A stretch of DNA of 61,142 nt, filler included. It is 11 parts of 11 records of this genome, joined end to end, with 100 filler letters (N's around TTAATTAATTAA, not from the genome) between each part and the next. Parts side by side here need not be neighbours in the genome. Positions count along the whole stretch, not along the records: positions 44,509 to 48,941 come from SRR7504441_2840; 10 more parts are not named here. One strand, written 5' to 3'. The notes beneath the pieces were generated by a model, which had not been told where the DNA came from, searched no databases, and saw only the letters and a program-made list of their open reading frames with translations. The position numbers were made by a program, and so were the translations under genes. Positions 17,862 to 58,955 of the stretch are shown here, piece after piece; position 1 is the first letter of the stretch, and each line of letters opens with the position of its first letter.

Positions 17862-18066
17862 NNNNNNNNNNNNNNNNNNNNNNNNNNNNNNNNNNNNNNN
17901 NNNNNTTAATTAATTAANNNNNNNNNNNNNNNNNNNNNNNNNNNNNNNNNNNNNNNNNNNNTGGTGTTGATAATGTCCTACACCATTGTAATATCACCTC
18001 GCCACTATACTTCTCTATACTCGTAAACCTACTATAACCCACTCAACTACAGTGTCCTGTACCACC

Positions 18067-21000
18067 CTACCTGTGGAATTTTGGGTTCTTCACCTTTTGG
18101 CGTTTTTCTCGACCTTGAGTAACTGTTGTTGGTTTCTTTGGGAACTTTCTTTTTGCCGCGAGCACGTCTCGCTGGTTGCCGTACATAAGAGCGGCGTCAA
18201 CATTGTACAGTTTTAACAACACACTGGCGTCAGTCTGTGGCACCAGCGGAGCCCAGTCGTAGGTCTTGGTTGTTACACCAGTTCCGGTGCCAGCAGTAGG
18301 CGCACGACCAAACACTTGGGTGTACTTTTCAGCATATGCACCTGCAGCTGCTTCTGGAGTGGGGAACTGACCCAATTGCACAGTGCCCGTTCCACGGATA
18401 AATATGCAAGCCTCGAACTGGCCGTCTGGCAGCTTGTATACTCCGCGGAAGCCTGTGGCAGAGGAAGGGCATGTAAGCAGACCCTGCCGCAGCTCCTTTC
18501 GCTCGCGAATGGCGCGGAGACCCGCGTTCACATCGACCACAGGCTCCGGTGCGGGATCCAATGCTGGAGATGTGGATTCCACCGGCTTGCTCTCTGGCTC
18601 AGCAGTGATTTCTACAGGCTTGCTCTCTGGCTCGTCAGTGTCCATTTTCTCGAGCTTTGGTGGACTCTCGTCTTTGGGTACATTCTCTGGTTGCTCTGCA
18701 TCCATCTTCTGTAGTTCGGGCGGGCTTTGCGTCGTCCGCACGCTTTCCTCCTTAGACACATCATGACTCGGACAACCGTCCTCTAGGGTTTGTTCATCGG
18801 TTTGATCATCGGTGTGCTGAGCACGAAGTTGGCGCAGCTCTTTCATGGCTGCCCTGTGGTCTGCAGCATCCAGAAGTTTGAACATGAGCGTGAGAGGCCG
18901 GCCAGCTGCCTTGATCATGGTGAGTACTTCCTTTTTGGACAGCTGGTCCACTGCAGCACCATTCAATTGCTTGACTATCATGCCAGGTTTGATCTCTGAA
19001 GGCAGCTTCGTATTTGTCACCTCCTTGACCACCACTCCAGGCAGCTCCCCTCGGCTTCCCAGCACCAGCCCTAATTTGCCATCTCCCGACCATGTGTGAG
19101 TCACATGCTTGGCGGCCTCTGCCGCCTCGCGCTTTGCTTTCTTTTCTCGCAGCTTGTCTGATTCCTTGTGTTCTGCTCGGAGCAGCTCGACTTCCTCCGG
19201 AACTGCCCACCACTTCTGGACGTATGTCTTGTCCACGTGCGCAACCGCCTCATGAAGCAGCTGCAGCAGCTCTGATGAGCTCACAGCGAGCTTCACCCTC
19301 ATGTTCCAATCAATCTTGTCCTCCTGAGTCCAGTTTTGCACTGCTTCGTAAGGAACAGCTGCCTCGATATCCTGCAGTTCGGCTTTCAGGCGCTTCAGCC
19401 CTTTCGACATCTCGGGCGGTTCCTCGTTGGCGTGCTTGCGGGCGCACTCCTCCCAGTGGAGCGCTAACTGCTCGCGCGAGATCTCGGCGATGTTGAATGT
19501 GGTGTGGCACGTCGGGCAGTGCCGCTCTGTCTGCAGATCAATCATCTCCTGGCAGAACTCGCACCGCTCTCCTCCAGCCACAGGCTGTGTCAGCTCCAAG
19601 TACTGAGTGGCTTTGGTCTGCACCAGCTCATGAGACAAAGAGATCGATTCCGGTTCGTCGGCCCATGAGGAAAGCAGCAGGTGCTTGTGCTCGAGCAGCG
19701 CCCCGCGGAGGTAGTGCTCGCGCTTCCCAGACGGCCTCAGCGAATTGATCAGTGCAGAGTAGTCCTCTTCGTTGTCGATCATTGTGACAGGATCGCTGCT
19801 ATTGTTGTTGAGCTTCTCTACTAAGATGAACGAAGGTCTGCCGAGGATCCAGTATTGATTGCCATTACGGTCCTGTCCTAGTGCGTGCCGGCGCCCCCTG
19901 CCACGGCGCTGCTCTAGCTCTGTGGCCTCCCGAGCCCATTGGGCATCTAGCTCCTCCCTTGCACGGAACTCATCCTGTTGCAACACGCGGTCAGACACAA
20001 CTAGTACAGCAAAAGACTATGCACACACCAGGGATTATATAGCTAAAGCTGACCTCTTTCTCAGATGCAGTCTTTTTCTTCTTCCGGAAACTTTTGTTTT
20101 TGTCTGTATCCTTGTCCACAGCAGGGTCTTCTTGATTAGGCTTTGTCTCTTTGGCAACCTCCTCAGGCTTGACCACTGGAGCTGCCTCTGGCTTGGTTTC
20201 CTGCTTGCCTTCTCCACACTTGTGCTGCGATCGCAATTCTTTGGTCATAAAGCACTCTCCGCACACCATGCACAGGTACTCGCCCTGGGCTGCGGGCTCC
20301 TTGACGGGCTCAGCAGCCTCTGCTGGAGCGGGTTCAACTCCAGAATCGATTTCCCTCAGCCTCGTTGCAAGTTGCTCCTTCTTCCGTCCATTGAAGGCAC
20401 TTCGTGCATGATTGGCCTGATCAAGATGCCTCCGTGTCTTGTCAGAGGACATGACCAAGTACACCATCTGCGTGAGCAGTTCTATTCGAGTGTTCAGATC
20501 AAGCTCGATATACTCCGCAGCTGCTAGCTGGTCTGCAAGGGTGGCACATATTCCAGCATCTCGTAGTTGCTTCATGTTGTCCAGCGCGACGTGCAGGAAG
20601 TACAGTCGGAGGGCCTCGGGCCAGGTGAAAGCGTTCACTTCGCAGTGGCTCAGGAATGGACACTCCTGCTTCGTTGCCTGAGTCAATTCAGCAAAGAGCG
20701 ACTTGATACAATGGATGTGGATGCCACTGATCAGCGCTTGATTCTCCGCTGGATGCACAAGCCCCTGCTCCAGCTGCTGCCACGAAACCATGCCCACGTC
20801 GAGTGCCTTGCCCAGGAAGAGAACCAGAAAGTCCCAGATGCCCAACATGCTGTTCCGGGATGCTTCAGGGAGCGCTTGGAAAGGAATGGCTGGGTGGCTG
20901 GGCAGGCAGACGCTGGCTTCGCCTTCATGCGCGTCTGTAAGGCTGTCTTCGTCGAACAGGAGGTTAGTGTATGGCAGTTTGGCCACCTCGCAGAATCGCT

Positions 21001-21426: not shown

Positions 21427-21526
21427 NNNNNNNNNNNNNNNNNNNNNNNNNNNNNNNNNNNNNNNNNNNNTTAATTAATTAANNNNNNNNNNNNNNNNNN
21501 NNNNNNNNNNNNNNNNNNNNNNNNNN

Positions 21527-26253: not shown

Positions 26254-26881
26254 NNNNNNNNNNNNNNNNNNNNNNNNNNNNNNNNNNNNNNNNNNNNTTA
26301 ATTAATTAANNNNNNNNNNNNNNNNNNNNNNNNNNNNNNNNNNNNNNNNNNNNGCCGCTGATCGAGGGTGCCTGGTTCAAGGGTCCTGAAGTGGGAGAGG
26401 AACTCGGGGGTGCGGACGATGAATCCTGGCTCCGACAAGCTGGAGAGGATCCGGATGCCGACGGCCCGGCCGAGCCAAGCAGCCCGAGCAGCCCCGCACC
26501 GTATTGAGTACCGAATCGATTTGTGTTGAGGATTCTTATGCAACTTGGTGCTTCGTTTCATTCCTCCGTTGATGTTAAGCCTACTTCAAATGCGGATGAA
26601 GCGCATGAAGGTGTGCAACATGATTGTGTGAGGATGCAAAGCACCGGATTCACGGATGTATACATGTAATGTTACGTACTAAGTTTGAATAAAGTTTTCA
26701 ACATGTTAAATACCTCTTAGCCCTCTATTCCGAGGAAGCTTAAACGAGTCTAAACTACGGCGTGTGAGGTTTCAACTCGAGCTGAGGTCCACGGATGAAT
26801 TCACTTACATGTAACTTATTAATACGCACATGTATGGGTATCGTACAGAAGGAGCGGGTCCGGAGGAGCTTGCTGGTCGTG

Positions 26882-28399
26882 CTACTTGGGCGCGATCCGC
26901 ACTGTGACGAGCGACGCCGCTGCTGCAGCGGCTTCACTAGACGCTGAGATACAAAGCTTGTTGGCGTGGCCGGGACAGACTGCGTAGCTAAAGGCGTTTG
27001 CCGGGCCAAGCAGCTCGACGGCATACCCTCGCGGGTACCGGTACGGCGGCAGGAAGATCTCCGTGGGCGCCGTAACGGCAAAGTCCGGCTCGAAGGTCAA
27101 CGTGAAGTTGCCGCCGCTAGCATCAAAGTTCATCTCCATGGGTGTCCCAGCGACCGCCTGGGCATACGGGCGCACCATGTTGAGGATGCAGAATCCGCCA
27201 GCCTTACAATTAGCCTCGGCGCCCGTGGCCGGGTTCTCTTTTCCAAAGAAGCTCAGATCCCAGTGTGTCCAGCTCTGGAACTGCCGGTCGGACTCCGCGA
27301 GCACCCACTCTCCTTCCACGGTATCGCCGCCGTTTGGGTCGACCTGCCTCGGCGTGAAGTTGACGCCGCCCCATTCCGTCATGAAGCTGGCGCCGCCGAT
27401 GTGTGCCATCGTCTCCTGCACGCTCTTGAAGACCTTGGGCCCCAGCCCCTCTTCGCAGGCCTTTTTGAGCAGCGGTGAAAGAGGGGCGGTGCTGTTCTTA
27501 GGCGAGTCTAGCCGGCAGTAGTAGTGGAAGGAGAAGGCAGACCGGTTGGCGTAGGCAGGGCCGCCGGGGATGTGCGAGAACCCGGAGCCGAGCAGCTTGT
27601 TGGACCATACCATGCCCCAAGTCACCGGCTCAAACATGATAATCGTGGCATTGTCCTCGCCCCGGATGGCGGCACTGACTACATCGTAGCTCGGCATCAG
27701 AGAGTGCGACCCTGCGTAGGCCGGGTCTAGCAGTAACGGATTCGAGTAGATGTCGCCCGCAAACGGCTCGTTCAGCAGTTCGTAGGCGAGCACCGCCTTG
27801 ACTTCCCGGAACGATGACGCGAAGGTGCGCCACGCGTCGGCCCACGCGGTGAGCCCGCCATGCCGGTTCTTGTAGATATCCTCGAAGATCTGATCCGTCG
27901 CGGGGTCGAGGTCGCCGCTTTTGCCATCCCACGGGCGCCGAAACTCGGTCCGGTTGGCGAGCCATCGAGGCATGCCATCATAAGCCCCGACCCGGGACGA
28001 CAAGCCATCTTGGTGCATGTCGAGGATGGCATAGGCCCCGGCCCGGCCGATCGCCTCCGTCACGTTCAGCAGCGCTGCCAGATATCGGGTGTCCGTTACG
28101 TTGGGCTCCGGCTGCAGCGCCGCCCACTCGGCACCAATCCGGAACGCGTTGAACCCAAACTGGTTGACTAGCCAGTCCAGCTCGCGCCCGTTGTGCACCA
28201 GCGTCTGTGGGAGGTAGTTGGACCCATCGAACGGCCCAACCCGCTGGGTCTCGTCGCCGGCGTCGCAGAATCCGTGGAACAGCCGAATGCGGCCGGCCTG
28301 GTCGATGAAATGCCGGCCGGAGACAGAGATCCGGTCCAGATCCTCCTGGCCTGCAGCGCCGGCAACAAGGAGGAGGAGCAGGACTGCGGCGGCTGCCAT
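26882..28399 (-). CDS. Secreted GH5 endoglycoceramidase-like glycoside hydrolase, intronless
   Basis: Signal peptide MAAAAVLLLLL; FIDQAGRIRLFHG, GFNAFRIG, ILDMHQD, YELLNEP (acid/base), SFHYY, FMTEWG (nucleophile), RPYAQAVAGTP, TEIFLP. Confidence 0.9.
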   Translation of the reverse strand: MAAAAVLLLLLVAGAAGQEDLDRISVSGRHFIDQAGRIRLFHGFCDAGDETQRVGPFDGSNYLPQTLVHNGRELDWLVNQFGFNAFRIGAEWAALQPEPNVTDTRYLAALLNVTEAIGRAGAYAILDMHQDGLSSRVGAYDGMPRWLANRTEFRRPWDGKSGDLDPATDQIFEDIYKNRHGGLTAWADAWRTFASSFREVKAVLAYELLNEPFAGDIYSNPLLLDPAYAGSHSLMPSYDVVSAAIRGEDNATIIMFEPVTWGMVWSNKLLGSGFSHIPGGPAYANRSAFSFHYYCRLDSPKNSTAPLSPLLKKACEEGLGPKVFKSVQETMAHIGGASFMTEWGGVNFTPRQVDPNGGDTVEGEWVLAESDRQFQSWTHWDLSFFGKENPATGAEANCKAGGFCILNMVRPYAQAVAGTPMEMNFDASGGNFTLTFEPDFAVTAPTEIFLPPYRYPRGYAVELLGPANAFSYAVCPGHANKLCISASSEAAAAAASLVTVRIAPK

Positions 28400-28519
28400 C
28401 GTTGGCAGACGTAGTCCGGGTGTAGAGGACGGTGCTACTGAATCGACCACACGGGACACACGGAGCGAAATTCCGTTATGACAAGCCGAAGGGCAGTTGC
28501 CCAGTTGCCGGCCGCAGAG

Positions 28520-29381
28520 ATGGGTAACCAGCCGGGCGGCGAGCAAGGGGCGCCACCGGATCAGGAACCGACGATGGCGTCGGCGCTCGATCAGAACATC
28601 ACCCGGGTTGCTACCACGTACAAGAGGGAGACCGAGCAGGAGGCGGAGGCCGCCGCGCAGTACCGAGAAGGCCTGATCGAAAGCAACCCGCAGACCAACT
28701 ACAAGTACGGCCGCAAGCTGGGCGAGGGCGGGTTCGGAGTTGTGATTGAGGCGACGCGCAAGTCGGACGGGGTGACGTTCGCGATGAAGGAGATCAACAA
28801 GGGGAACGCAGCGGTGAAGGACAGCTACCTGGCCCGGGAGATCGGGCTTATGGTGCAGTGCAAGCATAAGAACCTGATCAAGATCGAGGAGACATACTTC
28901 CACCGGAACCGGCTGTACATCATCATGGAGCTGGTCCCCATGCCTGGGCCCAACATCGCGCCCGATCTGTTCAGCTGGCTCACCGAGGACGCGCCAGGCT
29001 GTTTAGGGTTCGCGAACGCAGCCACCGAGCACCAGGTCGCGGTGATAGTCAAGCTGGTGGCCGAGGCGATCAGCTACCTGAACACCGAGCTGCAGGCCAT
29101 CCACCGGGACCTCAAGCCGGAGAACGTGCTGGTCGGGCCAGACGGGATCGAGAATCTGAAGGTGACGGACTTTGGACTGGCTCGGATGGGCGTGATGGAC
29201 GGCCAAGCGCAGCAGTTTACGTTCAAGGCCGGGACCGAGGGGTACATGGCCCCGGAGGTGGTCAACCGGCAGGAGGCCGTGGACGGCAAGGTGAGCTACG
29301 GCTCTGAGCCTTTCAAAGTTGATGTTTTCTCGCTCGGAGTGATTATGTTCATCTGCCTCTGCAAGACTCCGCCGTTCGGAG
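28520..29381 (+). CDS. Ser/Thr protein kinase (CAMK-like), putatively myristoylated (MGNQ), 3'-partial
   Basis: LGEGGFG, FAMK, IHRDLKPEN, DFG, YMAPE, VDVFSLGVI. Confidence 0.93.
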
Positions 29382-30094
29382 NNNNNNNNNNNNNNNNNNN
29401 NNNNNNNNNNNNNNNNNNNNNNNNNTTAATTAATTAANNNNNNNNNNNNNNNNNNNNNNNNNNNNNNNNNNNNNNNNNNNNAGCCAAGGCCAAGCTGCAG
29501 GCCATGGAGCCTGCGCCCTGGGAGAAGGTGCCCTGAGCCCGGCGGTTTGGTGATCCGCGTGGCAGAGCTCGTACACGCCGGAGCGGCGCAAGCTGTTCTC
29601 GTCGGCGCCGCAACTCCATCTGAACGAAGGGCCAAAGGGTCGGAATGGGGATCGGAGCTCGGCCCTCAAGAAGCAAATCGCGCGGCAAAGAGCGCATCTT
29701 GAGACATTGAAAAGGGGCCGGTAGGACGGGCGTGATGCGCCACCGCGAGTCATTTTTCGCAATACTAACAACAGTATTTTACTTGTGCAGCTGCGCTTAT
29801 TACAATCATGTACTCGTAGGCGTACATGTATCGTAGGCGCTTATAATACAATCATGTAGCGCTTATACATACTTGATTCCTGATACAACCGCAATTCCTC
29901 AGTCTCGAGAATTTGCTAAAGATTTCATTGATCAAGATGATTGTTAGTGCGCAAGAGCCGGCACAATTGACAGGCTAAAAATGAGCATTCAAACTTTGGC
30001 AACCGTCAATTGCAAGCATTGTCGTCTGCCGCTCAAACCGCCTACAAACGCCGTTGGATTCGGTTGTGTGGATTCCGGAATAAACCAGCGTCGT

Positions 30095-32763: not shown

Positions 32764-33093
32764 NNNNNNNNNNNNNNNNNNNNNNNNNNNNNNNNNNNNN
32801 NNNNNNNTTAATTAATTAANNNNNNNNNNNNNNNNNNNNNNNNNNNNNNNNNNNNNNNNNNNNAGATTCCGGCTTTCTGCTGAACTCACAATACCGGCTC
32901 GGACGTTGAGCTTACTGAAAGTTGAAGTTGACGGAGTACGTACTCGAGCTGGGCGGCTGGGCACATTACACAATCATGGTTTGGTAGGAATTTACACATG
33001 AATGACTACAGAATGACTAGACAAGGCATCTGTCAAGCACCCGTGCGCGGACTAGATATGTGTCTCTGGGAAGTAGTGAGTTGGATTCATGAG

Positions 33094-34433: not shown

Positions 34434-35022
34434 CTGGACGGGCCAGCAGGCTGCGGGCTCCTTACGCTGTGCCGCATAGGCCGGTGCACGCTGTGGCCGA
34501 ACAGTTGTGGCCAATGCCGCCCAATAAACACCAAACGTAATGCGCTGTGCTCAGCCTGAGCCATGCTTGGTGCAGCACTTGGTCGGCGTAAGAGCGCACC
34601 AACGAAAGGTGATCAATTCCAATAGCCTGCACTTTCGTTGTCCCGGGTGAACATACATAAACAAAATGCGCGCCAGCTTGTCGAAGTTGCACCTGCCGAC
34701 TGCACCCCAAAGTGCTCAGTGCGACAATCCGATGGTGCTTTGATCATCGAGGCGATTGAGGCCGCGGTTTGCAAAGAAGCCTTCGAAGCTCTACCGGTAT
34801 GAGAGGTACTACGCTGAGGCATTCGCCAATAGGCCGACCAAGATCGTCTGATTTCCCACGAGAGCACCAGATATTGCCTCGTGCAAGTGTGTGGCTACAG
34901 TATTAACCTCGTAACCTTGAGCATCGCGACGTGCGCCTCAGTTGCCAGCAGCAGCTCATCATCATTTTCGAGAACGCTCGCACGGTAGCACACCGCGCGG
35001 AGTACACAGCCAGGACAGCGCA

Positions 35023-36297
35023 ATGATCAAGATATCCAACGCCAGCTACGAGGCGTTTGTGAGCGCCTCCTCCGGAGCCGTTGGAGCTGCTGTGGCTACC
35101 GCGGCCCTGTACCCGTTCGATCGAGTCAAGGTTGCACTGCACAAAGCCCCGGAGCCGGTGCCGGTCGGGCTGACAGCCGGCCGAGTTGGCTGGGCAGGGC
35201 GAGCAGCCGTACAAGTCGGGCACCGAGGCCTTCCTGGCCATCATGGCCCGGGACGGACCAAGCGGTGGCCCTGTGGCCTGGTGGCGGCGAGCGGGCGGCA
35301 GGCCTGCTCCAGGGTGGCGGCTCGAAGACGCTGCAGGCGACGGTGCAGCGGTTCATTTACTTTTATTCGTACAGGTTCTTCATGGACAAGTGGGTCAAGC
35401 AGTTTGGGGCCCCGGTGGGCACGCTAGCCAACCTGTTCATCGGGTACATCAGCGGACTGGTCCAGACCGGCTTCACGCTGCCGATCGAAGTGGCAAACAC
35501 CAAGTGCACCGCCTCCGGCAAGTCGTTCGGCCGGGTGCTCGCCGAGACCATCCAGACCGACGGGCTGGCCGGGCTGTTCCGCGGGCTGGTCGCCTCGATT
35601 GTGCTGTGCATCAACCCGGCGATCCAGTACACTGCGGGAGAGCAGCTCCGTGGAATCCTGCTCCGCGCCACCGGGCGAGACCCCCTGAACAGCAAGCTCT
35701 CGCTCGGGGCAGTTGAGGCGTTCGTGCTCGGGGCGTTGGCCAAGATTCTGAGCACGATCACCACCTTCCCTCTGATTCGGGCCAAAATCATGATGCAGAC
35801 CACCAAAAAGCAGGCAGGCGCCCGAGTGGAGGAAGAGTTGGAGCGATTCGCCAGACAAAGCTTCGCGCAGGCCGACAAGAACAGTAACGGCAGCTTGACC
35901 AAGAGCGAGCTCAAGCGCTGGCTGCAACGGCACCCGCAGGCCAACCAGAGCCTGGGCGGGGCGAGCTGGCAGGAGCTGTTTGCGAGTGTTGACGAGGATG
36001 GCGACGGGCAGTTCAGCCTTGCTGAGTGGACTGCGTTCGTCAAGTCCAAGGCTGTGGCACCAGTCCCAGCAGGGATGATGGAGATTTTAGGCTACATCGT
36101 CGAGCATGAGGGGAGCGTGGGCCTGTTCAAAGGACTCAATACACAGCTCACCAAAGGCGTTCTAAACGCTGCGCTGATGAAGATGATCCAAGAGAGACTC
36201 AACGGTGGCATGATTGCCAGCGCCATCCGTTCTAATCCGTGTGCGTGCAGGGGCCACCCGAGCAGGGCTCAACACTGTCTTTGACCGGTCCCGTTGA
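35023..36297 (+). CDS. SLC25 carrier (peroxisomal adenine nucleotide/PMP34-like) with an internal EF-hand pair
   Basis: Three carrier motifs YPFDRVK, LPIEVAN and FPLIRAK; EG..GLF[RK]G segments; LCINPAIQY typical of peroxisomal carriers; EF loops DKNSNGSLTKSE and DEDGDGQFSLAE; three short introns. Confidence 0.88.
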
Positions 36298-36880: not shown

Positions 36881-38627
36881 TCACTGCGGCGGTTGTCCAC
36901 CAAAGTTGAAGCCACCCTGCGGCGCCTGCTGCATTCCGACACCGAAGGCGAAGTTGCCACCGGCTGTCTGCTCGGGCGCCAGCCCAGCATCCTCATCCTC
37001 AAAGCCAAAGTAGGTTTGGATAATTTTCATTGCCTTTTCATAGATTTCATTCTGCTCGTGGTTCTGCAGCAGCTCAATCTTGTCCAGCCCTCCGTGCGCT
37101 TCGACCATCTGCCCGAACACGTTGGTGTCGCTGCCTTGCTTCTGCGACTCGTCCTGCCCCACTCGCAGGATGTTTTCCAGACCCTCCAGCGCCACTGTAA
37201 CAATCCGGCCATCCTTGGCATCTAACAAGTCACAGAGCGGCGGGATGCAGTTCTTCTCCACCACGTATTTGATCTGCTCCACAGATCCGCCGGAGGTGGC
37301 GTTTGAGATGGCCCATGCCGCCTCTTTCTTAATGTCAAACTCAGCGTTCTTGAGCAGCTCGACCAGCGGCGGGATGACGTTGTGGTCAAACACGCACTGG
37401 ATCTGGTCCTTGGTCCCGGCAGTGATGTTGGATATCGTCCAGCAGGCCTCCTTCCGGATCCCCTTCTTGGGGCTGAGCAGCAGCACCCCAAGCCGTGCAA
37501 GCGCTCCGCAGTTGATCACAATCTGGGTCTGCATGTCATCGCCGGTCACAATGTTGCCCACGGTACGCAGCGCGGGCGTGACCACGGAGAAGGACATGTG
37601 GTTGAGCAGCTCGACCAACCGGCGGCAGACGCCGGCCTCGATTACCTTTTGGATCCTGTCATTCGGGCCATCCGACAAGTACGAGAGCGCCCAGGCTGCG
37701 TCGGTGAGCACCTCCTCGTCGTTGGAGTAGATCATGTGGGAGAGGGTGGGCAGGGCCGGGGCCACCCACTCGAACATGGGCTGCGGCTTGCCCCGGCAGA
37801 AGTTGGATAGGGTCCAGGTCGCATTCCGGAGCATTGAGAGCCGGTTGTTGTCACTCATACAGGTCAACAGCGGCTGGAGCGCCCCGTGGCTGAGCACCAG
37901 GTCACGGCACTTTGGCGAATCACCCGCAATGTTACCGAGCGCCCAGACCGCCTGCCCCCCGCTCAGCCGTATTGGCGGTGGAGGGCCACCTGCTCCCGGA
38001 CTTCCTCGCTCTGAGAGGAGAGCAACTCGACGAAGATTGGGACCGCGCCGTGCTCCATTACCACCCGGGTGTGGTCCGAGGTACCGCTCGCGATGTTGGT
38101 CAGCGCCCAGGCTGCCTCAAACTGGGCCGGCCGGTCAGATGGCCGGTTCAAGCCGCCGACCGACCTGCAGCTGCGGGTTGTCGTAGCACTTGAGGAATTG
38201 GATGAACCGCGGGACAACCCCGGCGCTAATCACCTCTTGGATCGGCGGGCTCCGCTCTGGGGCACCCACCGGGGTCAGCGGCTCAAGCGGGCGGTGGTTC
38301 ACCGATGGACAGGAGCTTGCGGAAGCGGGTGGTGGCTTCGAGCTGCTGGGCCCGGTCCTCCGAGATGACCGCTTGCACCATTTCTTGCAAGTCGTGCAGG
38401 TTGGCCTGGGTCGGGGTGTGCGGGACCTGAGCCATTGGCTCCTGCGCTGCCATCGCCCCGGACTGATCAAACTGCGCCGTCTGATCCTTGCGGCGTTTCA
38501 TCAAGCTGTCCTCGCGCTTGTTCCGACGGAGCTGGACCGTGGTCTCCTCGCGCCGCCGCCGGCTGTCATCTGTGTTGATCCCAGCCTTGTAGGACTTGGA
38601 GCGATTGCCACGCTCTCCAGCCGGCAT
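36881..38627 (-). CDS. KPNA: Importin subunit alpha
   Basis: IBB domain ([20 protein letters not shown]) and ARM repeats ([42 protein letters not shown]); introns of 46, 43 and 38 nt. Confidence 0.98.
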
Positions 38628-41299: not shown

Positions 41300-42478
41300 T
41301 CAAAGCATCTTCCACTCGGATCGCTTACCCTCCAATTGGGGTCTCCACGGTTCCTCGATGTGCAGGCGCGGATCTAAAATCAAGCTAGCGCGACTGTGCG
41401 GAGCCTCGACTGCATCCACCACTGCTTGGACGCTCGGCAGCGGCTCATTGGGGGGATGCCCAACTGCCCAGCGGTAGTACTGTCTAAACGCGTCCCATTC
41501 GACCACTTCCCGGCCGCCAACTTGCTGGTACAGGTCGCGGCAGTAATCACGCAGCACTGGGTACCCGGTTGGCTCGGCTAGGATTGCTCCTCGGCCGGCT
41601 GCCAGCCCGAACCCAGCGGCATAGGCCACGTCATACCGTAGCAGATTCATGAGCAGCCGCACGTCCACCAGGGTGAGCTGCCCCCCCATCACGTACCGCT
41701 GCCGGCTCAGGCAGTCCTCCAGCTGGTCGAGTTTGGCGTACACCTTGAGCCCGGCTGCGCGCGCGGCCTCGATCTGGCCTCGGAGCAGCGGCACCCCGGC
41801 CTTGTAGACTCCGTTGAGCAGCTCGGCCCACAGCTCGGCCTGAGAGCTCTCGATTGAGCATGCCAACTCTGCTGGGTAAAGCTGGGCCGACCGGGTGTGC
41901 AGCGGTCCGAACTCGGTGCAGAGCAGCTTGATCAGCTGCCAGCTGTCGTTGCAGACAACCTTGTTGAGCTCGCTGTCCCACAGAATAGGCACCGTGATCC
42001 GCGTTGTGCACCGGCTGTCGTCCTGCTGATAGACTTCGTGCGCCCAGAACGGGCCAGGCCGCCCCCGCCACGGCTCGCAGCTTGCGCCCGATAAGAACAC
42101 CCAGCCGGCGCTGCTCTGGCCGTCGGCCACATCCATTGAGATGGCGTGCTCCAGCCCGAGCATCCTGCGGACAGCGCGCACACCATTCGCCCAAGGACAC
42201 ACCCCCGACACGAAAAGATGGTACCTGCCGGCCGTGGCGCACACGTTGCCGCCGGCTGGGCTGAGCGAGTACTCTGAGGGCGGCCGGACAAATTGCTTGC
42301 CGCCGTTGCCGCCGGCGACCAGCACGTCAGCTGCCAGCGCACCGTCGCACAGCACCGCACGGTTGAACTTTGGCCAGGTGCGCGGGTCCACTTCATCGTA
42401 CGTGTAGGTGCCGCGGGCCGGTGGCAGGCCTTCCTGGTGCCGGGCCGAGTCTGGGCAGGTTTTTTGACAGGTCGCCAT
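41300..42478 (-). CDS. Glutathionyl-hydroquinone reductase (omega/xi-like GST, YqjG/ECM4 family), intronless
   Basis: AGRYHLFVSGVCPWA, GLEHAIS, TVPILWD..VCNDS, LNGVYKAG, LTLVDVRLLMNLLRYDVAY. Confidence 0.9.
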   Translation of the reverse strand: MATCQKTCPDSARHQEGLPPARGTYTYDEVDPRTWPKFNRAVLCDGALAADVLVAGGNGGKQFVRPPSEYSLSPAGGNVCATAGRYHLFVSGVCPWANGVRAVRRMLGLEHAISMDVADGQSSAGWVFLSGASCEPWRGRPGPFWAHEVYQQDDSRCTTRITVPILWDSELNKVVCNDSWQLIKLLCTEFGPLHTRSAQLYPAELACSIESSQAELWAELLNGVYKAGVPLLRGQIEAARAAGLKVYAKLDQLEDCLSRQRYVMGGQLTLVDVRLLMNLLRYDVAYAAGFGLAAGRGAILAEPTGYPVLRDYCRDLYQQVGGREVVEWDAFRQYYRWAVGHPPNEPLPSVQAVVDAVEAPHSRASLILDPRLHIEEPWRPQLEGKRSEWKML

Positions 42479-42586
42479 GTGGACCCGAGCAGGATTGCCG
42501 TTATAAATCCGTTATCTCCAGCTGCCGCGGGTGCGCCTGTCCGCAGCTCTCCAGGGGTTGCACTCCTGCAGGCACAGCCCAGAGCG

Positions 42587-44408: not shown

Positions 44409-44510
44409 NNNNNNNNNNNNNNNNNNNNNNNNNNNNNNNNNNNNNNNNNNNNTTAATTAATTAANNNNNNNNNNNNNNNNNNNNNNNNNNNNNNNNNNNN
44501 NNNNNNNNTG

Positions 44511-44963
44511 AGCTTTATCGTCTTTCGGCTGCTGTTATTCCCGTTTATCCTGTACCAGTACGCTCGCGACCTAGTCGAGCTAGGCCCTGAGCGGCGCGGC
44601 GAGCTGCTTACTGTTGAAATGGTTTATAATCCAGCAGTTGTCGCGCTGGTGTGGGTGCTGAGTGTCGTTTGGTTTGGCAAGATTCATGCCGGTATGCTCA
44701 AAGCACTCCGAGGCAAGCCTGCCAGGCAGCCAGAGATCCAACCACTCAAGAAAGATCGCGTCGATCAGGCTGTGGGCGTCCAGTATGAGCCTAAGAAGGC
44801 CCGCGAGAGCTGGCAGCCGCCAGCCACAAGATCAAAGAATCCTACGGAAGAGGTTGCCAAGTTGACCAAGCGGAAGCTTGCACAGGGCTCCTCTGCCGCA
44901 TCGGAGGAAGCACTCCTGCGCCGACTGAGCCAATCGCGCAGTCCAGCCTCCAGCCCGCCTTGA
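44511..44963 (+). CDS. C-terminal fragment of a TLC-domain membrane protein
   Basis: SFIVFRLLLFP..LVWVLSVVWFGKI matches the end pattern of TLC (TRAM/LAG1/CLN8) domains. Confidence 0.55.
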   Translation, partial: SFIVFRLLLFPFILYQYARDLVELGPERRGELLTVEMVYNPAVVALVWVLSVVWFGKIHAGMLKALRGKPARQPEIQPLKKDRVDQAVGVQYEPKKARESWQPPATRSKNPTEEVAKLTKRKLAQGSSAASEEALLRRLSQSRSPASSPP

Positions 44964-45379
44964 CGAGCTGCAATAATTGAGGCGAGTACAAACGTGTAGT
45001 GCGTACTTGTATAAATCGTGATCAGCAATGCCGGTACTTACATGAAGAGTTATTTTGAGACAATCCGTCTATCTAGAGATTTTAGTGCAAATACAGCCGA
45101 TAGTCCTCTTGTACAACAAGTAGATCCTTGGCCCGTCAGGCTCAGTGCGCGTGGCACCGCATCGTGCATGTAAGTAACAAAACGGTGATCTGTTGATGAC
45201 TAGATGGTCCGTGACGTGTACGTTACTTGAACCTAGGACGTCGTACTTAACAGGTCCTTGGGGGTACTTGGGAGTACTTAAAACAGCATAATAGCCATGC
45301 TAGGGGACAACAAATGCGGTTAACCATGCAAGTGGCGCGATTACGCATGATAGAAATTTAATATCTAGAGCACGTGGGT

Positions 45380-48300
45380 CTATGTGTATTCATCGGCCAA
45401 TTGCCAAGGCTCGGGATCCCAACTAGGAGACCGTCGGGGCGAGTCGGGCGGCAGCATCTCGTCAAAAGTCACTCGACGCGAAGCAGACTCTGGAAGCGCC
45501 CTCAAGATGCACCGCAGTCGTGAGTTGCGCTCAGCCAGCGCTGGTGGCTGTGCAAAGAACGTGAACTGCCTATCGGTGAGTGCCCGGTGGGCGTCGTGGA
45601 ACATTCGAGCCACATTCGGCATCGCAAACGCGGCCGAGGCCAGATTGATGTCTGGGTTGAATGGCGAGACCACCACAAGGGGCGAGGCGTGGCTGCCTGG
45701 GTCTCGCTCAAAGTAGCCGTCCGCAAGCGATACGCCAGTCGTAGCGAAATCAAAATGAGCGTAGTGATCCAGAAAGTCTATTAGTCGCTGGCCGAGGTCC
45801 TGGCCGCCCAGTCAGCTCTTGGTGTGAAGGCAGGGCCCACCAGCGCGGCGTTTTCAGGGAGTGGGAAAGCCTCGAGGAAGCAAGCCACCAGCAGGGCCAG
45901 GTTAGAAGATGAAAGCCCGCCGGTGTAGGCCTGGCCAGGCGGTGAGCGGCCGCGGTGGCGGGGCGCCAACCTCGTTTAAATCCTGCTCAGACAGCAGCTG
46001 CTTGAGCACCAACACGAGTGGCACCAGCTCCTCTCGCGCGCGGCCTTGTTCCTCGAGTAAACTAGTCAACTGGAGCCCAACGTGCCGGCTATGCTCGCTG
46101 CCTGGACCTGTAACCGCCAGCGTGAGCAATCTGGCCGGTGGCAGATCGGGCACCAGGCAGGTTGAAGCTGATATCCATCTGCAGCTGATTGTGGCATTTG
46201 GCCTGCCAGTTGGGTCGAGTCTGCGGCTGGCGGGCTGGTCCACCTTCACTACAGGGATCGATGCGGTGTCGATCGCCATCACGGTCTGAGGCAGCACGAA
46301 CTGGGCCTTGTCAGAGCAGCGTAGCTCCCATGCGAGTTGGGTCGACATAGCCTGGGCATTGAGCCTGGTCGCCTCGTCGCCTTGTACTGAGACAACCTGC
46401 ATCGCATAACAATCAGGGAGGTTCCGCGTCCAAAGCCGTACAATATCTACGTCCGAGTTGGGCAAAGCCATTTGGCTCGCCCGGGATCCAAACAGCTGTA
46501 CTCGCGCCGACTCGCCCCACACTAGCTGCACCACCCCCTGGAGCTGTCGACTCGCCTGGACTCTGCTTACAATCCCGCCCAGCAGGGTTGCAGGCACCTC
46601 TTGAAGCAATGGCTCCTGCCACCTGACTGCCGCCTTCGCGTGCTCCGAAAAGGAGAGTATCTCGTGATGCAATGACCCGAAGTCGTCTTCCTCGGCCTCT
46701 GGCGGGCACCCAGCTATGTATGGCACAGCCGGAGGCCCTAAGTCGACTGAGGCTGGTATACCAAAGCTGCTGTGGCCCTTAAGCAAGCTGCAGAAGGTGC
46801 GGACCACAGCATCGTCTGACCTGCGGTCGAGGTCCTCCTCGTCGATCACACAAAGCTTGGGCTTCTTGCCCTGTCGCTTGCCGGAGTCTCGAATCTTGAC
46901 ACACAGCCTGTTCCCTGCAAACCGCTCCCACGGATTGGCGTTGTTCCCCTGAAACTGAAACAAGTGCAACCCCGAGTCCAGTACGAAGAAATCCCCCTTG
47001 GTCAGTGATGACCACTGCAGCGGCACCACCCGTACAAAGACCTGCCGCTCGTCGCCCTTGACCTGCCCCGGCATTCGCCACCACGGCAGCCCGCCCATCT
47101 TGCCTGGAGCAGCCTCGGCTCGATCGCAGTGTCAGCACCAGCGTGCAGCGCTGCCTGATGCTCCGGGTCAACAGCCTCTATTTCCCAGCTATTCTCGTGC
47201 ATCAGCTCCAGGAACTGCTCACTCTCCTGGTCCTGCTCCTCCCTATGGTGCCGACACCTGCCCACCACCGGATCGAGCCTGCCCGTGCGCTGATTCTTAC
47301 AGCATCATCGACCCTCCCCGGGCCAGCTGACTCCTGTGAAGGTCTTGCTTCAGCCCTGTCCATATCCGCGATACCTCGATCACGAGTAACGCTGCACACA
47401 ACACATGATCTCGCCGCCCCTGGCCTGGCTACCTGCAGCGGAGCGAATCCTCGCGGAGGCGCTTTTCCCAAGCCAAAAGTACGTGTCGCCCCCACTCTTA
47501 CCTCTTACAAAAGTGACATAACATTGGCTAGACTGAAGCGCCAACGGGCCCTGACCACCCCTGAGTCCACCTGCAGCCCATCCCAAGACCTCTTGCGGAA
47601 GAGGCTCCAGGTGGAAATCTACACCGCCGCCCGGGAGCTTCTTGCTGGCCACTCGCCAGAGCTTCCCCTCGTCCGAAGTCTGAAGCGACGCCTTGGGTGA
47701 TGGTATACTCGGCGGCAGCGTCGAGCTGTTGTTCGGCTTCTTCTTCTGCAGGGCGAGTGCAGCTGGCTTTGGCCAGTATGTCTCGAGGAATGGTGTCATC
47801 ACGTCCTCTGAACGTGCAGCTGGGCCCCGAAGCGGCACAGGTGGCCACTGCCCGAGCGCATTGCAGAAGGCAATCACGTCGATATCATAAGCGCTGTGCT
47901 CAAGATCTTGCTCGTCAATGTGCAGAAGCGGCGGTTTGTCGCTAAATGAAGTTCCAAATCCACTAGCCCTCGTCGGATCATCGCGGATGAAAGACGCAGC
48001 CGCACTCCCGACCACCCGCTCCAAAGGCTTGGCGGATGATTTTTGAAAGTGGAAAATTGTCATTCCAATGTCAAGAACGAACACATTCCCATGCCCCAGC
48101 GAAGTCCACTCGGCAGGCACTTCGCTCATTACTGGATCCTTTTTCTCTCCGGCAGTCACCAGCACAAGCCTCGGCGTGAATTCCACCTGAGGCGGTGGCC
48201 GGAACCCTTTGAGAGTCTCGCGCGACCGCTCTCTCGTGAGCTCCGCAGGCAGGCTCTGGTCGATCAGCGCCAGGAACCGCTTCGATTCGGAGCCCTGCAC

Positions 48301-48941
48301 TTCTCGCCGGTGCGTGCATGCCCCACCCAGCAGCTTGTCTAGCTCCGCAGCCTGGCATGGCTCACATTTGCCCAGCTACAGCGGCCACCTTGAGGGCTGC
48401 GGCGCCCCGCATGTCGATAGACGACTCACTCCCGAACCAAAAGAATACCTCGTGCCTGCCTCGCCATCTCTGGCAGCCAACCAAGCCAGGCACCCGAATG
48501 CCTGGAGCTGTCCGTTCATTCGAGCGTGCCCCTTGCCCACCCCCAGCTTGACTTTACACCAGCCGTCCTTCCTTGGCCTGTGCGTCCGGAGCAGCAGCAG
48601 CGCAGCGTTCGGCTGGAGCTCATCCCTGGTTGCAGTTGGATTCAGTTAGAACCACAGGCTAACAAACCTGCTGGTGGCGCAAGCTCTCATCCGGAACGCC
48701 GGGGCGCCTCCGACCCATCTGTTGTCCACACGCCACACCTGAGCCGAACACTCACCCCGCTGCCAGTTGGATTGCCCTGCCTGGGTGCCGAGCGATGCCC
48801 CCACGCAGCCCCATTCCTCCCGGCTCGCGGGCTTCGCGGGTTCGTGCGAGCGGGCCAGCAGCTGCTCCCGGGGCGGCGCTCACGGCCGGCGGTCAAGGTG
48901 CGGCCTAGAAGTCCGATACTGAAATACTTTGCCTCAGTATC
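45380..48941 (-). CDS. Gelsolin-repeat protein fused to a Trf4/TENT4-like nucleotidyltransferase; 5' end uncertain
   Basis: EVFFWFGSESSIDMRGAAALK|AAELDKLLGG..HRREVQGSES (gelsolin G1), WTSLGHGNVFVLD (G2), a second G1/G2 pair, then LFGSRASQMALPNSDVDIV, LVLVLKQLL, TGGLSS and SPFNPDINL. Confidence 0.85.
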
Positions 48942-49358
48942 NNNNNNNNNNNNNNNNNNNNNNNNNNNNNNNNNNNNNNNNNNNNTTAATTAATTAANNN
49001 NNNNNNNNNNNNNNNNNNNNNNNNNNNNNNNNNNNNNNNNNATGCTCAAGGTGAATCTGCACAAAGCGGGGATTGCACACGATAAGGCGGCTGCGGCTTT
49101 CGAGGCCCAAGAGGGGAGAGTCGGTCAGAAGCGGAAGCGTGTGGACGATTCTTGAGTACATCTTGACTAGAGATTCAATGCCATTTAAATGCGTAATAGC
49201 AACCAGCCCATAGATACTATAGAGCCATACGGTTGACCATTAGGCTGTTCGGATGATCCAAGGCCGACAGTCAGTACTAGACTACGACTGAGTATTAGTA
49301 GACTATAGTAACGGAAAGCTGGAGGCTCCAGAGAAGCGGCCCCGGTTACACTCATTGG

Positions 49359-56495: not shown

Positions 56496-56837
56496 NNNNN
56501 NNNNNNNNNNNNNNNNNNNNNNNNNNNNNNNNNNNNNNNTTAATTAATTAANNNNNNNNNNNNNNNNNNNNNNNNNNNNNNNNNNNNNNNNNNNNTCCCC
56601 ACATGGAGCCCTCCCGCCCAAAGCTACTATTTAGACACTAGCACTCATGTACTGGTTGACTTATATGTATCAAATGGTCATCCCAATTGGTTTAATATGG
56701 TATCACGCTAGTAGTCGCCCGGGCCGTCGTAGGGCCGTCGTGCAGTCGAATTGAACACTTGAACGGACAGCTGACCTGAACATCCAAGCCAACGAGTTCT
56801 GGCATGTGAATGCCGTTGCTCAGAAGAGTTGGTGAGA

Positions 56838-57578: not shown

Positions 57579-58838
57579 CTACACCAACAAATTGAGCTGT
57601 CGGTAGCTTGGATGATCGATAGGCGGCATCGCGTGCCCGTCATCATGCAAGCACGCGCTAACCTTGCAACCAGCCGCCCGCCACATCTCCTTGAGTTTCT
57701 CCACATGCAACGCGCAGCCTTGCTCGTCCAGCAGCCCCCCCGATAGAAACACCTTTAGTTTGCCATAAGGAGTCTCCGCAATCTCAGGCAGCACGAAAGC
57801 ATCCGCTCGACCTAGCTTCTGCCGCATCTCGTAAGAGTTCATCATGCACGACCAGCCGGCGATGAATCCTATCTTGCGCTCGCAGGCCCTGTTGATCCTC
57901 TCCAGACGCTCAGCCAGCTGCATCACCGCGGAAAATCCCTGAGAGAACCCACACAGCCCATCATACCCGCCTGCTCGCACAATCTGCCGCTCTAGACTAT
58001 CAATCGGGGCATCAAGCGCTGCCTCATTTCTCGGCAGGTTGCGGTCGTATCCGCGGTAGTATTGCGGTTCAAAGTCATAGAAGCTGTACAGCTCAATCGA
58101 GCCTTCGAGACCGGCGGATCTGAAGTCCTCGCCGAGACCCACCGACTCGTGGAGCTGAGCGGCCGACAGCCGGACCTCCCCCTGCGCGCACTCCACCTCG
58201 GCCTGCCCGCCGAATGCCTTCCGGATCAGATCTGCCCCTCGCCCTGAGCCCAGAGCCGCACGGCACGCACCGATCTGAAAGTCTCTCGCTATTTGGGCCG
58301 AGCTGCCGTCCCCGTGAAGGAAGAGCAACTTCAACGGCCGCCGGATGGGCAAGCCGGCCGGACCCGGGACCGGCGCCCCGGCCGCTGCCCCGGCCGCCTG
58401 CTGCAACGCGGCTCGGAGCTTCTTGATAAGCCCGGTAATGGCGGCCACCTCCTCCGGACGGCGCCGGTGATGGTTGGGGTCGAACTGCGGGTGCCGCCAC
58501 TGGTCGCCGTTGGTATCGGCCGCTGCCTCCCTCAGCCGCTCAAGGTCGCGTGCGGCTCGCTGCATCGCTCCCATCCGGACACGTCTCGGGTCGCTTTCCA
58601 CCGCCCGCAGCACCGCCGCTGTGTCGGCCCGGACCAGACCGGCCGCTTCCAGACCGGCCAGCTGGTCCAGCGTCACCGGCATCGGCACGTGCACGTGGCC
58701 TTGGTCGGTATCCGGCGACTCCAGGCTCTGGGCTGCCCCGGGCTTGACGATCCCGGACTCGACCCCGGCCTCGAACTCGGCCCGGTCGATCTTGCCGTCG
58801 CCATTGGTGTCCAGCTTGTTGAACGTCTTGTCTGCCAT
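57579..58838 (-). CDS. FSH1/OVCA2-family serine hydrolase with an N-terminal EF-hand
   Basis: FNKLDTNGDGKIDRAEF; LKLLFLHGDGSS, YDGLCGFSQG (nucleophile elbow), HDDGHAMP. Confidence 0.8.
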   Translation of the reverse strand: MADKTFNKLDTNGDGKIDRAEFEAGVESGIVKPGAAQSLESPDTDQGHVHVPMPVTLDQLAGLEAAGLVRADTAAVLRAVESDPRRVRMGAMQRAARDLERLREAAADTNGDQWRHPQFDPNHHRRRPEEVAAITGLIKKLRAALQQAAGAAAGAPVPGPAGLPIRRPLKLLFLHGDGSSAQIARDFQIGACRAALGSGRGADLIRKAFGGQAEVECAQGEVRLSAAQLHESVGLGEDFRSAGLEGSIELYSFYDFEPQYYRGYDRNLPRNEAALDAPIDSLERQIVRAGGYDGLCGFSQGFSAVMQLAERLERINRACERKIGFIAGWSCMMNSYEMRQKLGRADAFVLPEIAETPYGKLKVFLSGGLLDEQGCALHVEKLKEMWRAAGCKVSACLHDDGHAMPPIDHPSYRQLNLLV

Positions 58839-58955
58839 CTCACTGCGCAACAGCTGCCAATGCTGCCTGCCGCCGCACTCCTTGCCACCGACTGGCCCAG
58901 ATTGAAGCAACGGAAGTTACACTCCATGGGTTAAAGGGCTTCCACGCATGGGAAG

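Follow-up and report, generated by a model that had tools for sequence, protein, structure and literature searches.

The contig at positions 44509-48941 of the window (the whole stretch of 61,142 nucleotides analysed here) is a 4.4-kb metagenomic molecule carrying a gene in which gelsolin repeats are followed by a non-canonical RNA polymerase, and sequence comparison indicates that this gelsolin-polymerase fusion is a single gene conserved in relatives. The chances appear about even that its one product combines a gelsolin module binding actin filaments with a tailing polymerase thereby placed on the actin cytoskeleton. The gene comes from an uncultured marine protist that is GC-rich and has short introns. 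As the window was put together artificially by joining 11 contigs, genes outside 44509-48941 are not neighbours of the fusion gene. An importin-alpha gene on an adjoining contig of the window has environmental relatives of 77-93% identity, whereas its best named or labelled relatives reach 63-72% and are spread over many supergroups. The splice junctions of the gene model were enumerated from coordinates, and several intron borders have alternatives. The contig limits, the coding region and the introns are as follows:

48942-49041, no strand: artificial linker N44 - TTAATTAATTAA - N44, identified from the N-run table and the sequence, marking the contig end
44409-44508: twin artificial linker at the other end of the same contig
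45380-48879, minus strand: conceptual coding region of 12 exons, with 972 codons and a stop codon (45380-45382)
48739-48780, 48626-48667, 48460-48557 and 48352-48388, minus strand: proposed introns in the first gelsolin repeat, G1
47290-47397, minus strand: proposed intron of 108 nt in the third repeat, G1', the alternative being a GC donor at 47424 and a length of 135 nt
47063-47103, minus strand: GC-AG intron of 41 nt in the fourth repeat, G2'
46397-46441 (45 nt), 46203-46243 (41 nt) and 46108-46153 (46 nt), minus strand: introns in the palm domain
45931-45970 (40 nt) and 45800-45840 (41 nt), minus strand: introns in the central / PAP-associated domain

The joined frame of the spliced model has a single stop, located at its end, and the gene is considered 5'-incomplete since no ATG appears upstream as far as position 48941, where the contig ends. 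There are about 11 introns, mostly of 37-46 nt, an unusually short length able to mask true frame changes within an apparently open GC-rich ORF. An additional in-frame intron at 46556-46597 was weighed and left out of the model, the region being kept as coding because similar residues are retained there in the relative P0040. In another lineage, represented by P0152, there is a hint of an intron near this region.

The N-terminal half of the predicted protein is, judging by its sequence, a duplicated severin-like gelsolin module. Four gelsolin repeats in the order G1-G2-G1'-G2' had been proposed in an earlier note on this DNA, and both the number and the order were borne out by home-made G1 to G6 profiles, all four repeats lying on the minus strand:

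48253-48801, minus strand: gelsolin repeat G1 (model aa 27-136), matching the G1 profile at 3.3e-21 and containing four proposed introns
47836-48213, minus strand: second gelsolin repeat, G2, including the G1-G2 linker ahead of it (model aa 150-275), found with Pfam and the G2 profile
47194-47664, minus strand: third gelsolin repeat, G1', divergent in sequence (model aa 333-453), for which the G1 profile is the best of the six
46778-47127, minus strand: fourth gelsolin repeat, G2', together with its linker (model aa 476-578), found with Pfam and the G2 profile

With the same profiles, aa 159-228 were classified as G2 at 1.1e-11, aa 387-453 as G1 at 6.2e-05, and aa 476-563 as G2 at 7.7e-23, and none of the four repeats matched a G3-, G4-, G5- or G6-type profile best. 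The Pfam Gelsolin family (PF00626, cut-off 21 bits) was found in ORF 47380-48375, where it corresponds to repeat G2 (6.9e-08, 32.7 bits), and at aa 33-101 of ORF 45902-47131, where it corresponds to G2' (1.4e-08, 34.9 bits); G1 and G1' were not detected by this family and were seen only with the home-made profiles. Among solved structures, 32 and 34 distinct sequences are matched by the two gelsolin ORFs, all of them belonging to the gelsolin superfamily or to engineered or Asgard gelsolin-domain proteins, with the best matches being adseverin (3.4e-11, for G2') and villin (4.1e-11). The end of G1, the linker and G2 (query aa 10-135) are colinear with residues 80-199 of horse gelsolin. In BLASTP searches performed by repeat, G1, G2 and G2' each fell within the expected region of all ten six-repeat references, the best matches of G1 lying within the first ~120 residues in 10/10, and G1' matched the G1 region in only three of the seven references it matched at all. 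The repeats are also related pairwise, G1 to G1' at 7e-08 with 33% identity and G2 to G2' at 1e-21.

The colinear arrangement of G1, linker and G2 is common to the contig's protein and to gelsolin, severin, fragmin, adseverin and CapG, and the best solved matches of its G2' are gelsolin G2 and adseverin. In contrast to these three- or six-repeat proteins, it has no G3-type repeat, and its C-terminus is an enzyme. Gelsolin repeats are likewise joined to an unrelated module in flightless-type, villin-type and PH- or CH-domain forms, although the partner there is a structural or signalling module and not an RNA enzyme. Six of the seven long gelsolin matches scanned carry such an extra module (LRR in two, headpiece in five, PH in one, CH in one), and a nucleotidyltransferase was found in none of the seven.

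The repeats and the enzyme are connected as follows:

46679-46777, minus strand: linker of about 33 aa joining G2' to the polymerase without a change of frame, free of Met and stop codons

According to the earlier note, the last repeat and the nucleotidyltransferase motif share one uninterrupted ORF at 45902-47098. They do lie in the same stop-free frame, but the ORF extends over 45902-47131, and it is open by chance of a GC-rich frame and holds several short introns. The locus is interpreted as one gene because a single frame runs over the junction, no Met occurs between G2' and the GS motif, and colinear fused homologues exist elsewhere. One of these, P0002 from another assembly, shows 49% identity by tblastn across the junction (window 47062-46589, E 6e-46). 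P0001 (927 aa, E 6e-42) contains two Gelsolin domains, MTPAP-like and PAP_assoc, and among the 11 members of its cluster five possess the whole last repeat together with the polymerase and one a partial repeat with the polymerase. Two contigs of 3.6-3.8 kb, L001 and L002, which are 100% identical over 3612 nt, harbor a single 1133-codon frame that covers gelsolin repeats, linker and polymerase. In L003, a related genomic contig, frame breaks and gaps occur at three places that are uninterrupted in L001, which gives L001 the appearance of a spliced mRNA. In both halves the spliced model aligns colinearly with P0153 (E 3e-52 and 7.5e-32). Two ENA contigs, 5178 and 4002 nt in length, each appear as the longest contig listed for a G2' piece and likewise for polymerase pieces.

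An assembly chimera, or two adjacent genes misread as one, would account for such a junction in a metagenomic contig, and no independent contig bridging 46660-47015 came from four DNA runs of marine or aquatic metagenomes. These runs contain small shares (0.05-0.15), no RNA run being listed among those with a share, and yielded only pieces of 92-325 nt when mapped onto the contig; no piece bridging this interval and no joints were seen among them, and they are uninformative on assembly and expression. Against a chimera stand the frame crossing the junction without a stop or Met, the two ENA contigs, and the same order of parts in independent assemblies of other lineages (the P0001 cluster, L001/L002 and P0002). 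Since colinear homologues occur in independent environmental assemblies, the fusion is not regarded as an assembly artefact, and the chimera or two-gene reading is extremely improbable and largely refuted. Other searches gave no further fused relatives: a word-based search for longer fused relatives of the window ORF scored none of 8000 candidates, which is weak evidence; 33 pattern matches in viral contigs included no relatives; and all clusters listed for P0153 in the ESM Atlas were polymerase-only, with scores of at most 0.84 and none with gelsolin. The suggestion that no protein with this architecture has been described also held, none being named or published in the literature and sequence collections searched. 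Metagenomic eukaryotic contigs can thus contain domain architectures absent from every named protein returned in searches.

The fused homologues of the P0153/P0001 family (loci L001 and L002) have the same fusion and order as the gene on the contig, with 30-31% identity over both halves, and P0153 likewise keeps the catalytic residues. The family differs in its repeat formula, G1-G2-G2-G2 versus G1-G2-G1'-G2', and in GC content, 50% versus about 60%.

The C-terminal half is, by its domain content, a predicted Cid1/Trf4-family non-canonical RNA nucleotidyltransferase with a PAP-associated domain:

46100-46678, minus strand: nucleotidyltransferase catalytic (palm) domain, by Pfam MTPAP-like_central and alignment with TENT4A-like enzymes
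46445-46489, minus strand: GS...DxD motif
46173-46175, minus strand: codon of the third catalytic Asp
45584-46099, minus strand: central / PAP-associated domain, by Pfam PAP_assoc and alignment
45907-45921, minus strand: GGLSS motif in the PAP-associated domain
45635-45667, minus strand: loop corresponding to the nucleotide-recognition motif
45383-45583, minus strand: C-terminal tail of 67 aa, with no confident Pfam domain

The nucleotidyltransferase and PAP-associated motifs are present where the earlier note had placed them, on the minus strand. Of the three families it had named for an HMM scan, Gelsolin and PAP_assoc score above their cut-offs, the latter marginally (PF03828 in ORF 45380-45811, 6.5e-05, 23.6 bits against 22.6), but NTP_transf_2 reaches 19.2, under its cut-off of 21, and MTPAP-like_central scores instead (PF22600, aa 189-301 of ORF 45902-47131, 7.1e-08, 33.1 bits, cut-off 27). 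ORF 45380-45811 also has sub-threshold matches to DUF2017 (E 0.027, aa 59-117) and tRNA_NucTransf2 (E 0.057, aa 40-86). The third catalytic Asp, the loss of which had been named as counting against the enzyme, is present only after splicing: it is outside the frame of ORF 45902-47131 and sits in ORF 46089-46310. Removal of the frame-shifting introns 46397-46441 and 46203-46243 brings this residue in, and the catalytic triad, the role of which is described in the available part of PMC13702519, is therefore complete. In an alignment with TENT4A-like enzymes and other relatives, GS, DxD and the third D fall in matching positions, and the G, S and three D residues are invariant in 17/17 sequences of alignment A3. 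The polymerase half thus appears catalytically complete and is predicted to be active.

The family assignment was refined by comparison with solved structures. The 409-aa ORF of the window matched gelsolins only, the last exon gave a weak mtPAP match (0.011), and the N-terminal polymerase piece gave no match to solved structures, so the assignment to Trf4/TENT4 rests on a homologue. Its best solved match by sequence is Trf4p (3nyb, 2.7e-13 and 1.2e-14), followed by TUT4/7 (3.5e-07 and 4.9e-08). The AF2 model of homologue P0160, with a domain pLDDT of about 90, is predicted to have the bilobal Cid1-type fold, and in Foldseek it gave 221 matches with E <= 0.001, the 38 chains listed being Cid1-family RNA-tailing enzymes without exception. 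Trf4p 3nyb was again the best (1.5e-15, TMt 0.73), the margin over TUT7 and GLD-2 being small at the fold level. The spliced model itself matches fish TENT4A at E 4.6e-29. By homologue comparison, the polymerase is probably nearest to the Trf4/TENT4 type, the closest solved relative of the homologue being yeast Trf4p.

Trf4p/TENT4 (PAPD5/PAPD7, the catalytic subunit of TRAMP, PDB 3nyb) and the fusion protein have in common the palm and PAP-associated domains, GS, DxD and the third Asp, and both lack an RNA-binding domain of their own; for the fusion protein, none was detected by Pfam in the window ORFs or in P0001. Gelsolin repeats are not reported for Trf4p/TENT4 in three TENT reviews, the word gelsolin occurring 0 times in the available portions of PMC7988573, PMC6232586 and PMC13702519. 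Star-PAP (TUT1) and GLD-2 also possess a Cid1-family core with targets set by an added module or partner, as far as described in the accessible parts of PMC6309179 and PMC4191412; their accessory parts differ, and the homologue's solved-structure matches to them are weaker than to Trf4p. Nucleotide recognition in Cid1 involves D330, F332, E333 and H336, according to the excerpted text of PMC13702519. At the H336 position, located by its distance from the (D/S)-P-(F/L) motif, there is Ile in the window, Ser in P0153 and Asn in TENT4A, the His of terminal uridylyltransferases of the Cid1 and TUT4/7 type being absent from the window at this position, as judged indirectly by spacing, since the direct alignments to Cid1 did not extend over this loop.

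In the alignment the window has Ser at the position of Cid1 D330, a residue discussed in the available part of PMC13702519, and this, together with the lack of a detected RNA-binding domain, would fit a polymerase domain acting on a non-RNA target (e.g. by nucleotidylation of actin or another protein) or an inactive pseudoenzyme. Such a function is very unlikely: the GS/DxD/D set is complete and, like the PAP-associated domain, characteristic of Cid1-family enzymes specific for RNA, and 38/38 chains listed in the fold search with P0160 are RNA-tailing enzymes.

With TRAMP polymerase Trf4p as the closest solved relative of the homologue and G1' too divergent for Pfam, the repeats could have taken on the role of a scaffold, either protein-protein or nuclear (e.g. 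for nuclear actin or other partners), the enzyme then being a TRAMP-type nuclear surveillance polymerase. This arrangement is unlikely: G1, G2 and G2' are strong matches to true gelsolin/villin repeats in the right order, with the G1-G2 linker included, and neither a Zn-knuckle nor any other TRAMP-like feature was found by Pfam in the window ORFs and P0001.

The conserved acidic pair of gelsolin repeats consists of Ca2+ ligands, and the Ca2+-released latch of gelsolin is formed by parts of G3-G6. The pair is invariant in 11/11 reference G1/G4 repeats and in 7/7 reference G2 repeats. In the alignment both residues are absent from G1 and from G1', which distinguishes the protein from actin severing and capping gelsolins, and G2 has Asn at the conserved Asp position with the Glu retained; of the four repeats only G2' has both. 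As the best-scoring profile of every repeat is of the G1 or G2 type and never of the G3 to G6 types, the latch is concluded to be absent. The Ca2+-switched enzyme envisaged in the earlier note thus keeps its basis in G2' and loses it in G1 and G1', in part in G2, and in the missing latch, for which reasons Ca2+ regulation of the putative tailing enzyme is weakly supported.

The same residues bear on the proposal that the gelsolin module is mainly a Ca2+ or phosphoinositide switch, gating the polymerase by intramolecular docking, and not a tether. Both acidic residues are kept in the repeat adjoining the enzyme, not only in the window but also in a distant homologue (its repeat G2c), and a phosphoinositide-modulated non-canonical PAP exists, namely Star-PAP (accessible part of PMC6309179). 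A switch of this kind is nevertheless quite unlikely in view of the missing pairs in G1 and G1', the incomplete pair in G2, the absence of the classical latch and the linker to the enzyme, which is about 33 aa here and about 215 aa longer in P0153, a difference arguing against a fixed docking geometry.

The preferred interpretation remains that of actin tethering of the polymerase, which is plausible from the sequence data. The gelsolin module is expected from homology to bind actin filaments, the best candidate for actin binding being the G2-type repeat that always adjoins the enzyme. It would thereby put a polymerase without a recognisable RNA-binding domain on the actin cytoskeleton, where nucleotides would be added without a template to the 3' ends of nearby RNAs, presumed to be the substrate, with A or a mixture of nucleotides being more probable than specificity for U. 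To our knowledge, non-canonical RNA polymerases of the Cid1/Trf4 family show no intrinsic RNA-binding specificity, their targets being set by partners or placement. Trf4-type enzymes are mostly nuclear, which makes them a poor fit to an actin-filament role, and the lack of the acidic pair in G1 and G1' as well as the high divergence of G1' count against actin binding. That enzymes of this kind can be directed by tethering is indicated by the available part of PMC4191412, in which cytoplasmic ncPAPs are described as elongating tails in artificial tethering assays.

The conserved combination of gelsolin and polymerase suggests that RNA tailing may be tied to the actin skeleton. It is tentatively proposed, with somewhat less than even confidence, that uncultured marine protists possess a conserved family of F-actin-bound tailing enzymes in which a G2-type repeat always precedes a Trf4/TENT4-like polymerase. 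With an actin side-binding repeat always located before the polymerase, tailing would be physically coupled to actin within one polypeptide chain, and the stability or translation of mRNAs would be affected locally as a consequence. The family offers a recombinant test system, in which tailing can be followed with and without F-actin or Ca2+ and for which the frame of L001 is intron-free. If true, the proposal would mean that a natural, conserved fusion connects the cytoskeleton directly, through a genetically encoded link, with the modification of RNA 3' ends.

Ten N44-TTAATTAATTAA-N44 linkers split the window into 11 contigs, and since it is a chain of separate contigs, gene neighbourhood across the linkers is meaningless. 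The 4433-nt contig at 44509-48941, with a GC content of about 0.51-0.60, is the only true context within the window for the gene joining gelsolin repeats to a Cid1/Trf4-family polymerase. A convergent plus-strand ORF (44509-44963, 168 aa) enters this contig from the linker and ends about 420 nt from the fusion-gene stop, with lower GC between the two (about 45000-45380).

Features of the window
47380-48375, minus: ORF with a Gelsolin match (Pfam, 6.9e-08)
45902-47131, minus: stop-free ORF with Gelsolin (aa 33-101; Pfam, 1.4e-08) and, in the same frame, MTPAP-like_central (aa 189-301; Pfam, 7.1e-08)
45380-45811, minus: ORF with PAP_assoc (Pfam, 6.5e-05, just over the cut-off)
11135-11234, 14470-14569, 17862-17961, 21427-21526, 26254-26353, 29382-29481, 32764-32863, 44409-44508, 48942-49041, 56496-56595: artificial linkers
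16332-17861, plus: ORF on another contig, calpain domain III
18067-20016, minus: ORF on another contig, WSD (DDT-associated) motif
26882-29002, minus: ORF on another contig, GH5 cellulase with C-terminal domain
41300-42511, minus: ORF on another contig, GST

The earlier note placed the last gelsolin repeat and the nucleotidyltransferase in one uninterrupted ORF, and both Pfam matches do lie inside the stop-free ORF 45902-47131. Neither a stop nor a Met occurs in translation between that repeat and the GS motif, so the polymerase is unable to start alone in this frame. The openness of the frame is, however, partly an accident of GC richness, and the motif with the third catalytic Asp sits in another frame (ORF 46089-46310), which is matched by relatives (P0015 against window 46205-46158).

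The gene model was built by enumerating GT/GC-AG junctions by coordinate and picking those where the spacing of the homologues was reproduced. It consists of 12 exons and 11 introns giving one 972-codon frame with the stop at 45380-45382; upstream there is no ATG as far as the contig end, and the gene is 5′-incomplete. The introns, within 45800-48780, measure 42, 42, 98, 37, 108, 41, 45, 41, 46, 40 and 41 nt, i.e. nine of the 11 fall in the range of 37-46 nt, with the borders of two having alternatives (46108-46153 against a 52-nt version; 47290-47397 against a 135-nt GC-AG version) and a candidate in-frame intron, 46556-46597, excluded. Nine donors are GT and two GC, the latter being the only possible ones for the intron 47063-47103. 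An independent importin-alpha gene on another contig carries a 46-nt GT-AG intron (38258-38303), so tiny introns are normal for the source organism; its spliceosomal introns are unusually short and able to hide inside open GC-rich frames.

Environmental relatives of this importin-alpha share 77-93% identity with it, and the best named or labelled ones 63-72%, spread over many supergroups; small fragments of the fusion contig are present in four marine or aquatic metagenome runs. The source is thus an uncultured marine eukaryote. On its other contigs, the ORF 57579-58916 (minus) has EF-hand matches at its N-terminal end together with a serine hydrolase domain of the FSH1 type and may be another unusual Ca2+-linked fusion. 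In the stop-free ORF 34989-36284 (plus), Mito_carr repeats (aa 144-225) precede the EF-hands (aa 288-353), whereas Ca2+-regulated mitochondrial carriers usually have them the other way round; hidden short introns may distort this ORF.

Misassembly, or two genes read as one, is a very unlikely explanation of the fusion, since fused homologues occur across assemblies. An exhaustive HMMER search over 1.84 billion representatives gave 166 matches at E ≤ 0.001, the top one being the 927-aa environmental protein P0001 (6e-42) with two Gelsolin, MTPAP-like and PAP_assoc domains in Pfam. Among the 11 members of its cluster, five have the complete last repeat with the polymerase, one a partial repeat with the polymerase, and the other five, from short contigs, are fragments with the polymerase alone. 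The environmental contigs L001 and L002, carrying loci of this family, are 100% identical over 3612 nt and contain one 1133-codon frame followed by a 317-nt non-coding tail. The related genomic contig L003 shows frame breaks and gaps at three sites where L001 is continuous, and its alignment ends at a fourth, GT-initiated junction near the contig end, so L001 and L002 resemble assembled mature mRNA.

The spliced model is colinear with another family member, P0153, across both halves (3e-52 and 7.5e-32). The alignment of a closer relative, P0002 (tblastn, 49% identity, 6e-46), runs through the gelsolin-polymerase junction (window 47062-46589), the place that the earlier note singled out for checking. 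Two ENA contigs (5178 and 4002 nt) each appear as the longest one listed under a G2′ piece as well as under polymerase pieces. These comparisons show the fusion to be conserved across lineages sharing only 30-31% identity. At the 5′ end of L001 (1-400), the G1 start is read in frame 0 and everything after it in frame 1, a stop lying immediately ahead of nt 89; an indel, intron retention or faulty assembly may be responsible. P0152, from the P0001 cluster, has a differing N-terminus, possibly through intron retention or use of another 5′ exon. It meets the sequence shared by the cluster immediately ahead of the first conserved helix-strand region of the polymerase, near the place of the excluded intron 46556-46597.

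The two gelsolin ORFs match 32 and 34 distinct solved sequences, all of them either members of the gelsolin superfamily or gelsolin-domain proteins of engineered or Asgard origin, and aa 10-135 of the upstream ORF are colinear with gelsolin 80-199 (G1 tail, linker, G2). Profiles of the six repeats, made from seven gelsolin/villin-type matches with six repeats each and approximate repeat borders, assigned model aa 27-136 to G1 (3e-21), 159-228 to G2 (1e-11), 387-453 to G1 (G1′; 6e-05, the best among six profiles) and 476-563 to G2 (G2′; 8e-23); no G3-type repeat was detected in the model. BLASTP placed G1, G2 and G2′ in the expected region of all ten references, with G1′ being ambiguous (seven of ten matched, the G1 region in three of these seven). 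Within the model, G1 matches G1′ (7e-08) and G2 matches G2′ (1e-21), which bears out the order G1-G2-G1′-G2′ read earlier, and the gelsolin half appears to stem from duplication of a G1-G2 unit within the protein.

The polymerase half of the spliced model aligns with fish TENT4A (4.6e-29 over ~300 residues) and further relatives, keeping in register the G-S, the DxD, the third Asp, the GGLSS-type helix and the PAP-associated region. The catalytic residues are invariant across a 17-sequence alignment, and the third acidic residue, whose presence the earlier note wanted checked, is in place once the introns are removed; the roles of the Cid1 counterparts D101, D103 and D160 are described in PMC13702519. 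The same source gives H336 of Cid1 as UTP-selecting. At this position, located by spacing from (D/S)-P-(F/L), the window has Ile, the homologue Ser and TENT4A Asn, so a U-specific enzyme seems unlikely by this indirect criterion. The best solved match of the homologue by sequence is Trf4p (3nyb; 2.7e-13 and 1.2e-14, with TUT4/7 at 3.5e-07 and 4.9e-08). The AlphaFold model of P0160 (pLDDT about 90 in the polymerase domain) likewise retrieved 3nyb first in Foldseek (1.5e-15, TMt 0.73), with TUT7 and GLD-2 close behind. This Trf4p affinity is a property of the homologue, the window's exons being too short to tell subfamilies apart. As judged from the deduced protein, one gene joins true gelsolin repeats in G1-G2 order to a catalytically complete Cid1/Trf4-family polymerase.

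Among the proteins searched the architecture is rare. Both domains were found in one of 13 HMMER matches scanned with Pfam and, with P0153 as query, in one of 15 proteins at E ≤ 0.001 (its own cluster), the other 14 being polymerase-only. It was absent among the Atlas clusters listed and from the viral contigs scanned. None of seven long gelsolin proteins scanned with Pfam had a nucleotidyltransferase, six having LRR, headpiece, PH or CH partners. Full-text searches combining gelsolin with TENT terms gave either no paper or a single unrelated one, and none of the papers listed by broader searches, three TENT reviews among them, mentions gelsolin. On this sequence evidence the conserved fusion is real, its function is predicted, and no named or published counterpart was found in the searches. 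The P0153/P0001 family carries the same fusion, but with the formula G1-G2-G2-G2 and a far longer linker.

Gelsolin repeats bind Ca2+ through conserved acidic residues, and the Ca2+-released latch of gelsolin involves its C-terminal repeats; the repeat that binds the filament side is G2. All references keep two acidic residues unchanged (11/11 G1/G4 and 7/7 G2 repeats). In the window protein both are missing from G1 and G1′, G2 has Asn and Glu, and G2′ alone retains the pair; common to both lineages is a G2-type repeat with both residues directly ahead of the enzyme. Of the interpretation offered in the earlier note, the single fused gene with a complete catalytic set stands, and a Ca2+-gated switch of the polymerase is less likely because one or both acidic residues are missing from three of the four repeats and none of the repeats is closest to a G3, G4, G5 or G6 profile. 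The gelsolin module may alternatively be a scaffold unrelated to actin filaments, or the enzyme may have a nuclear TRAMP-like role. According to the abstract of PMC4191412, cytoplasmic ncPAPs are active when artificially tethered. In the reading we prefer, the gelsolin module would anchor the polymerase on actin filaments, and this placement would do the work of the RNA-binding partners on which enzymes of this kind usually depend.
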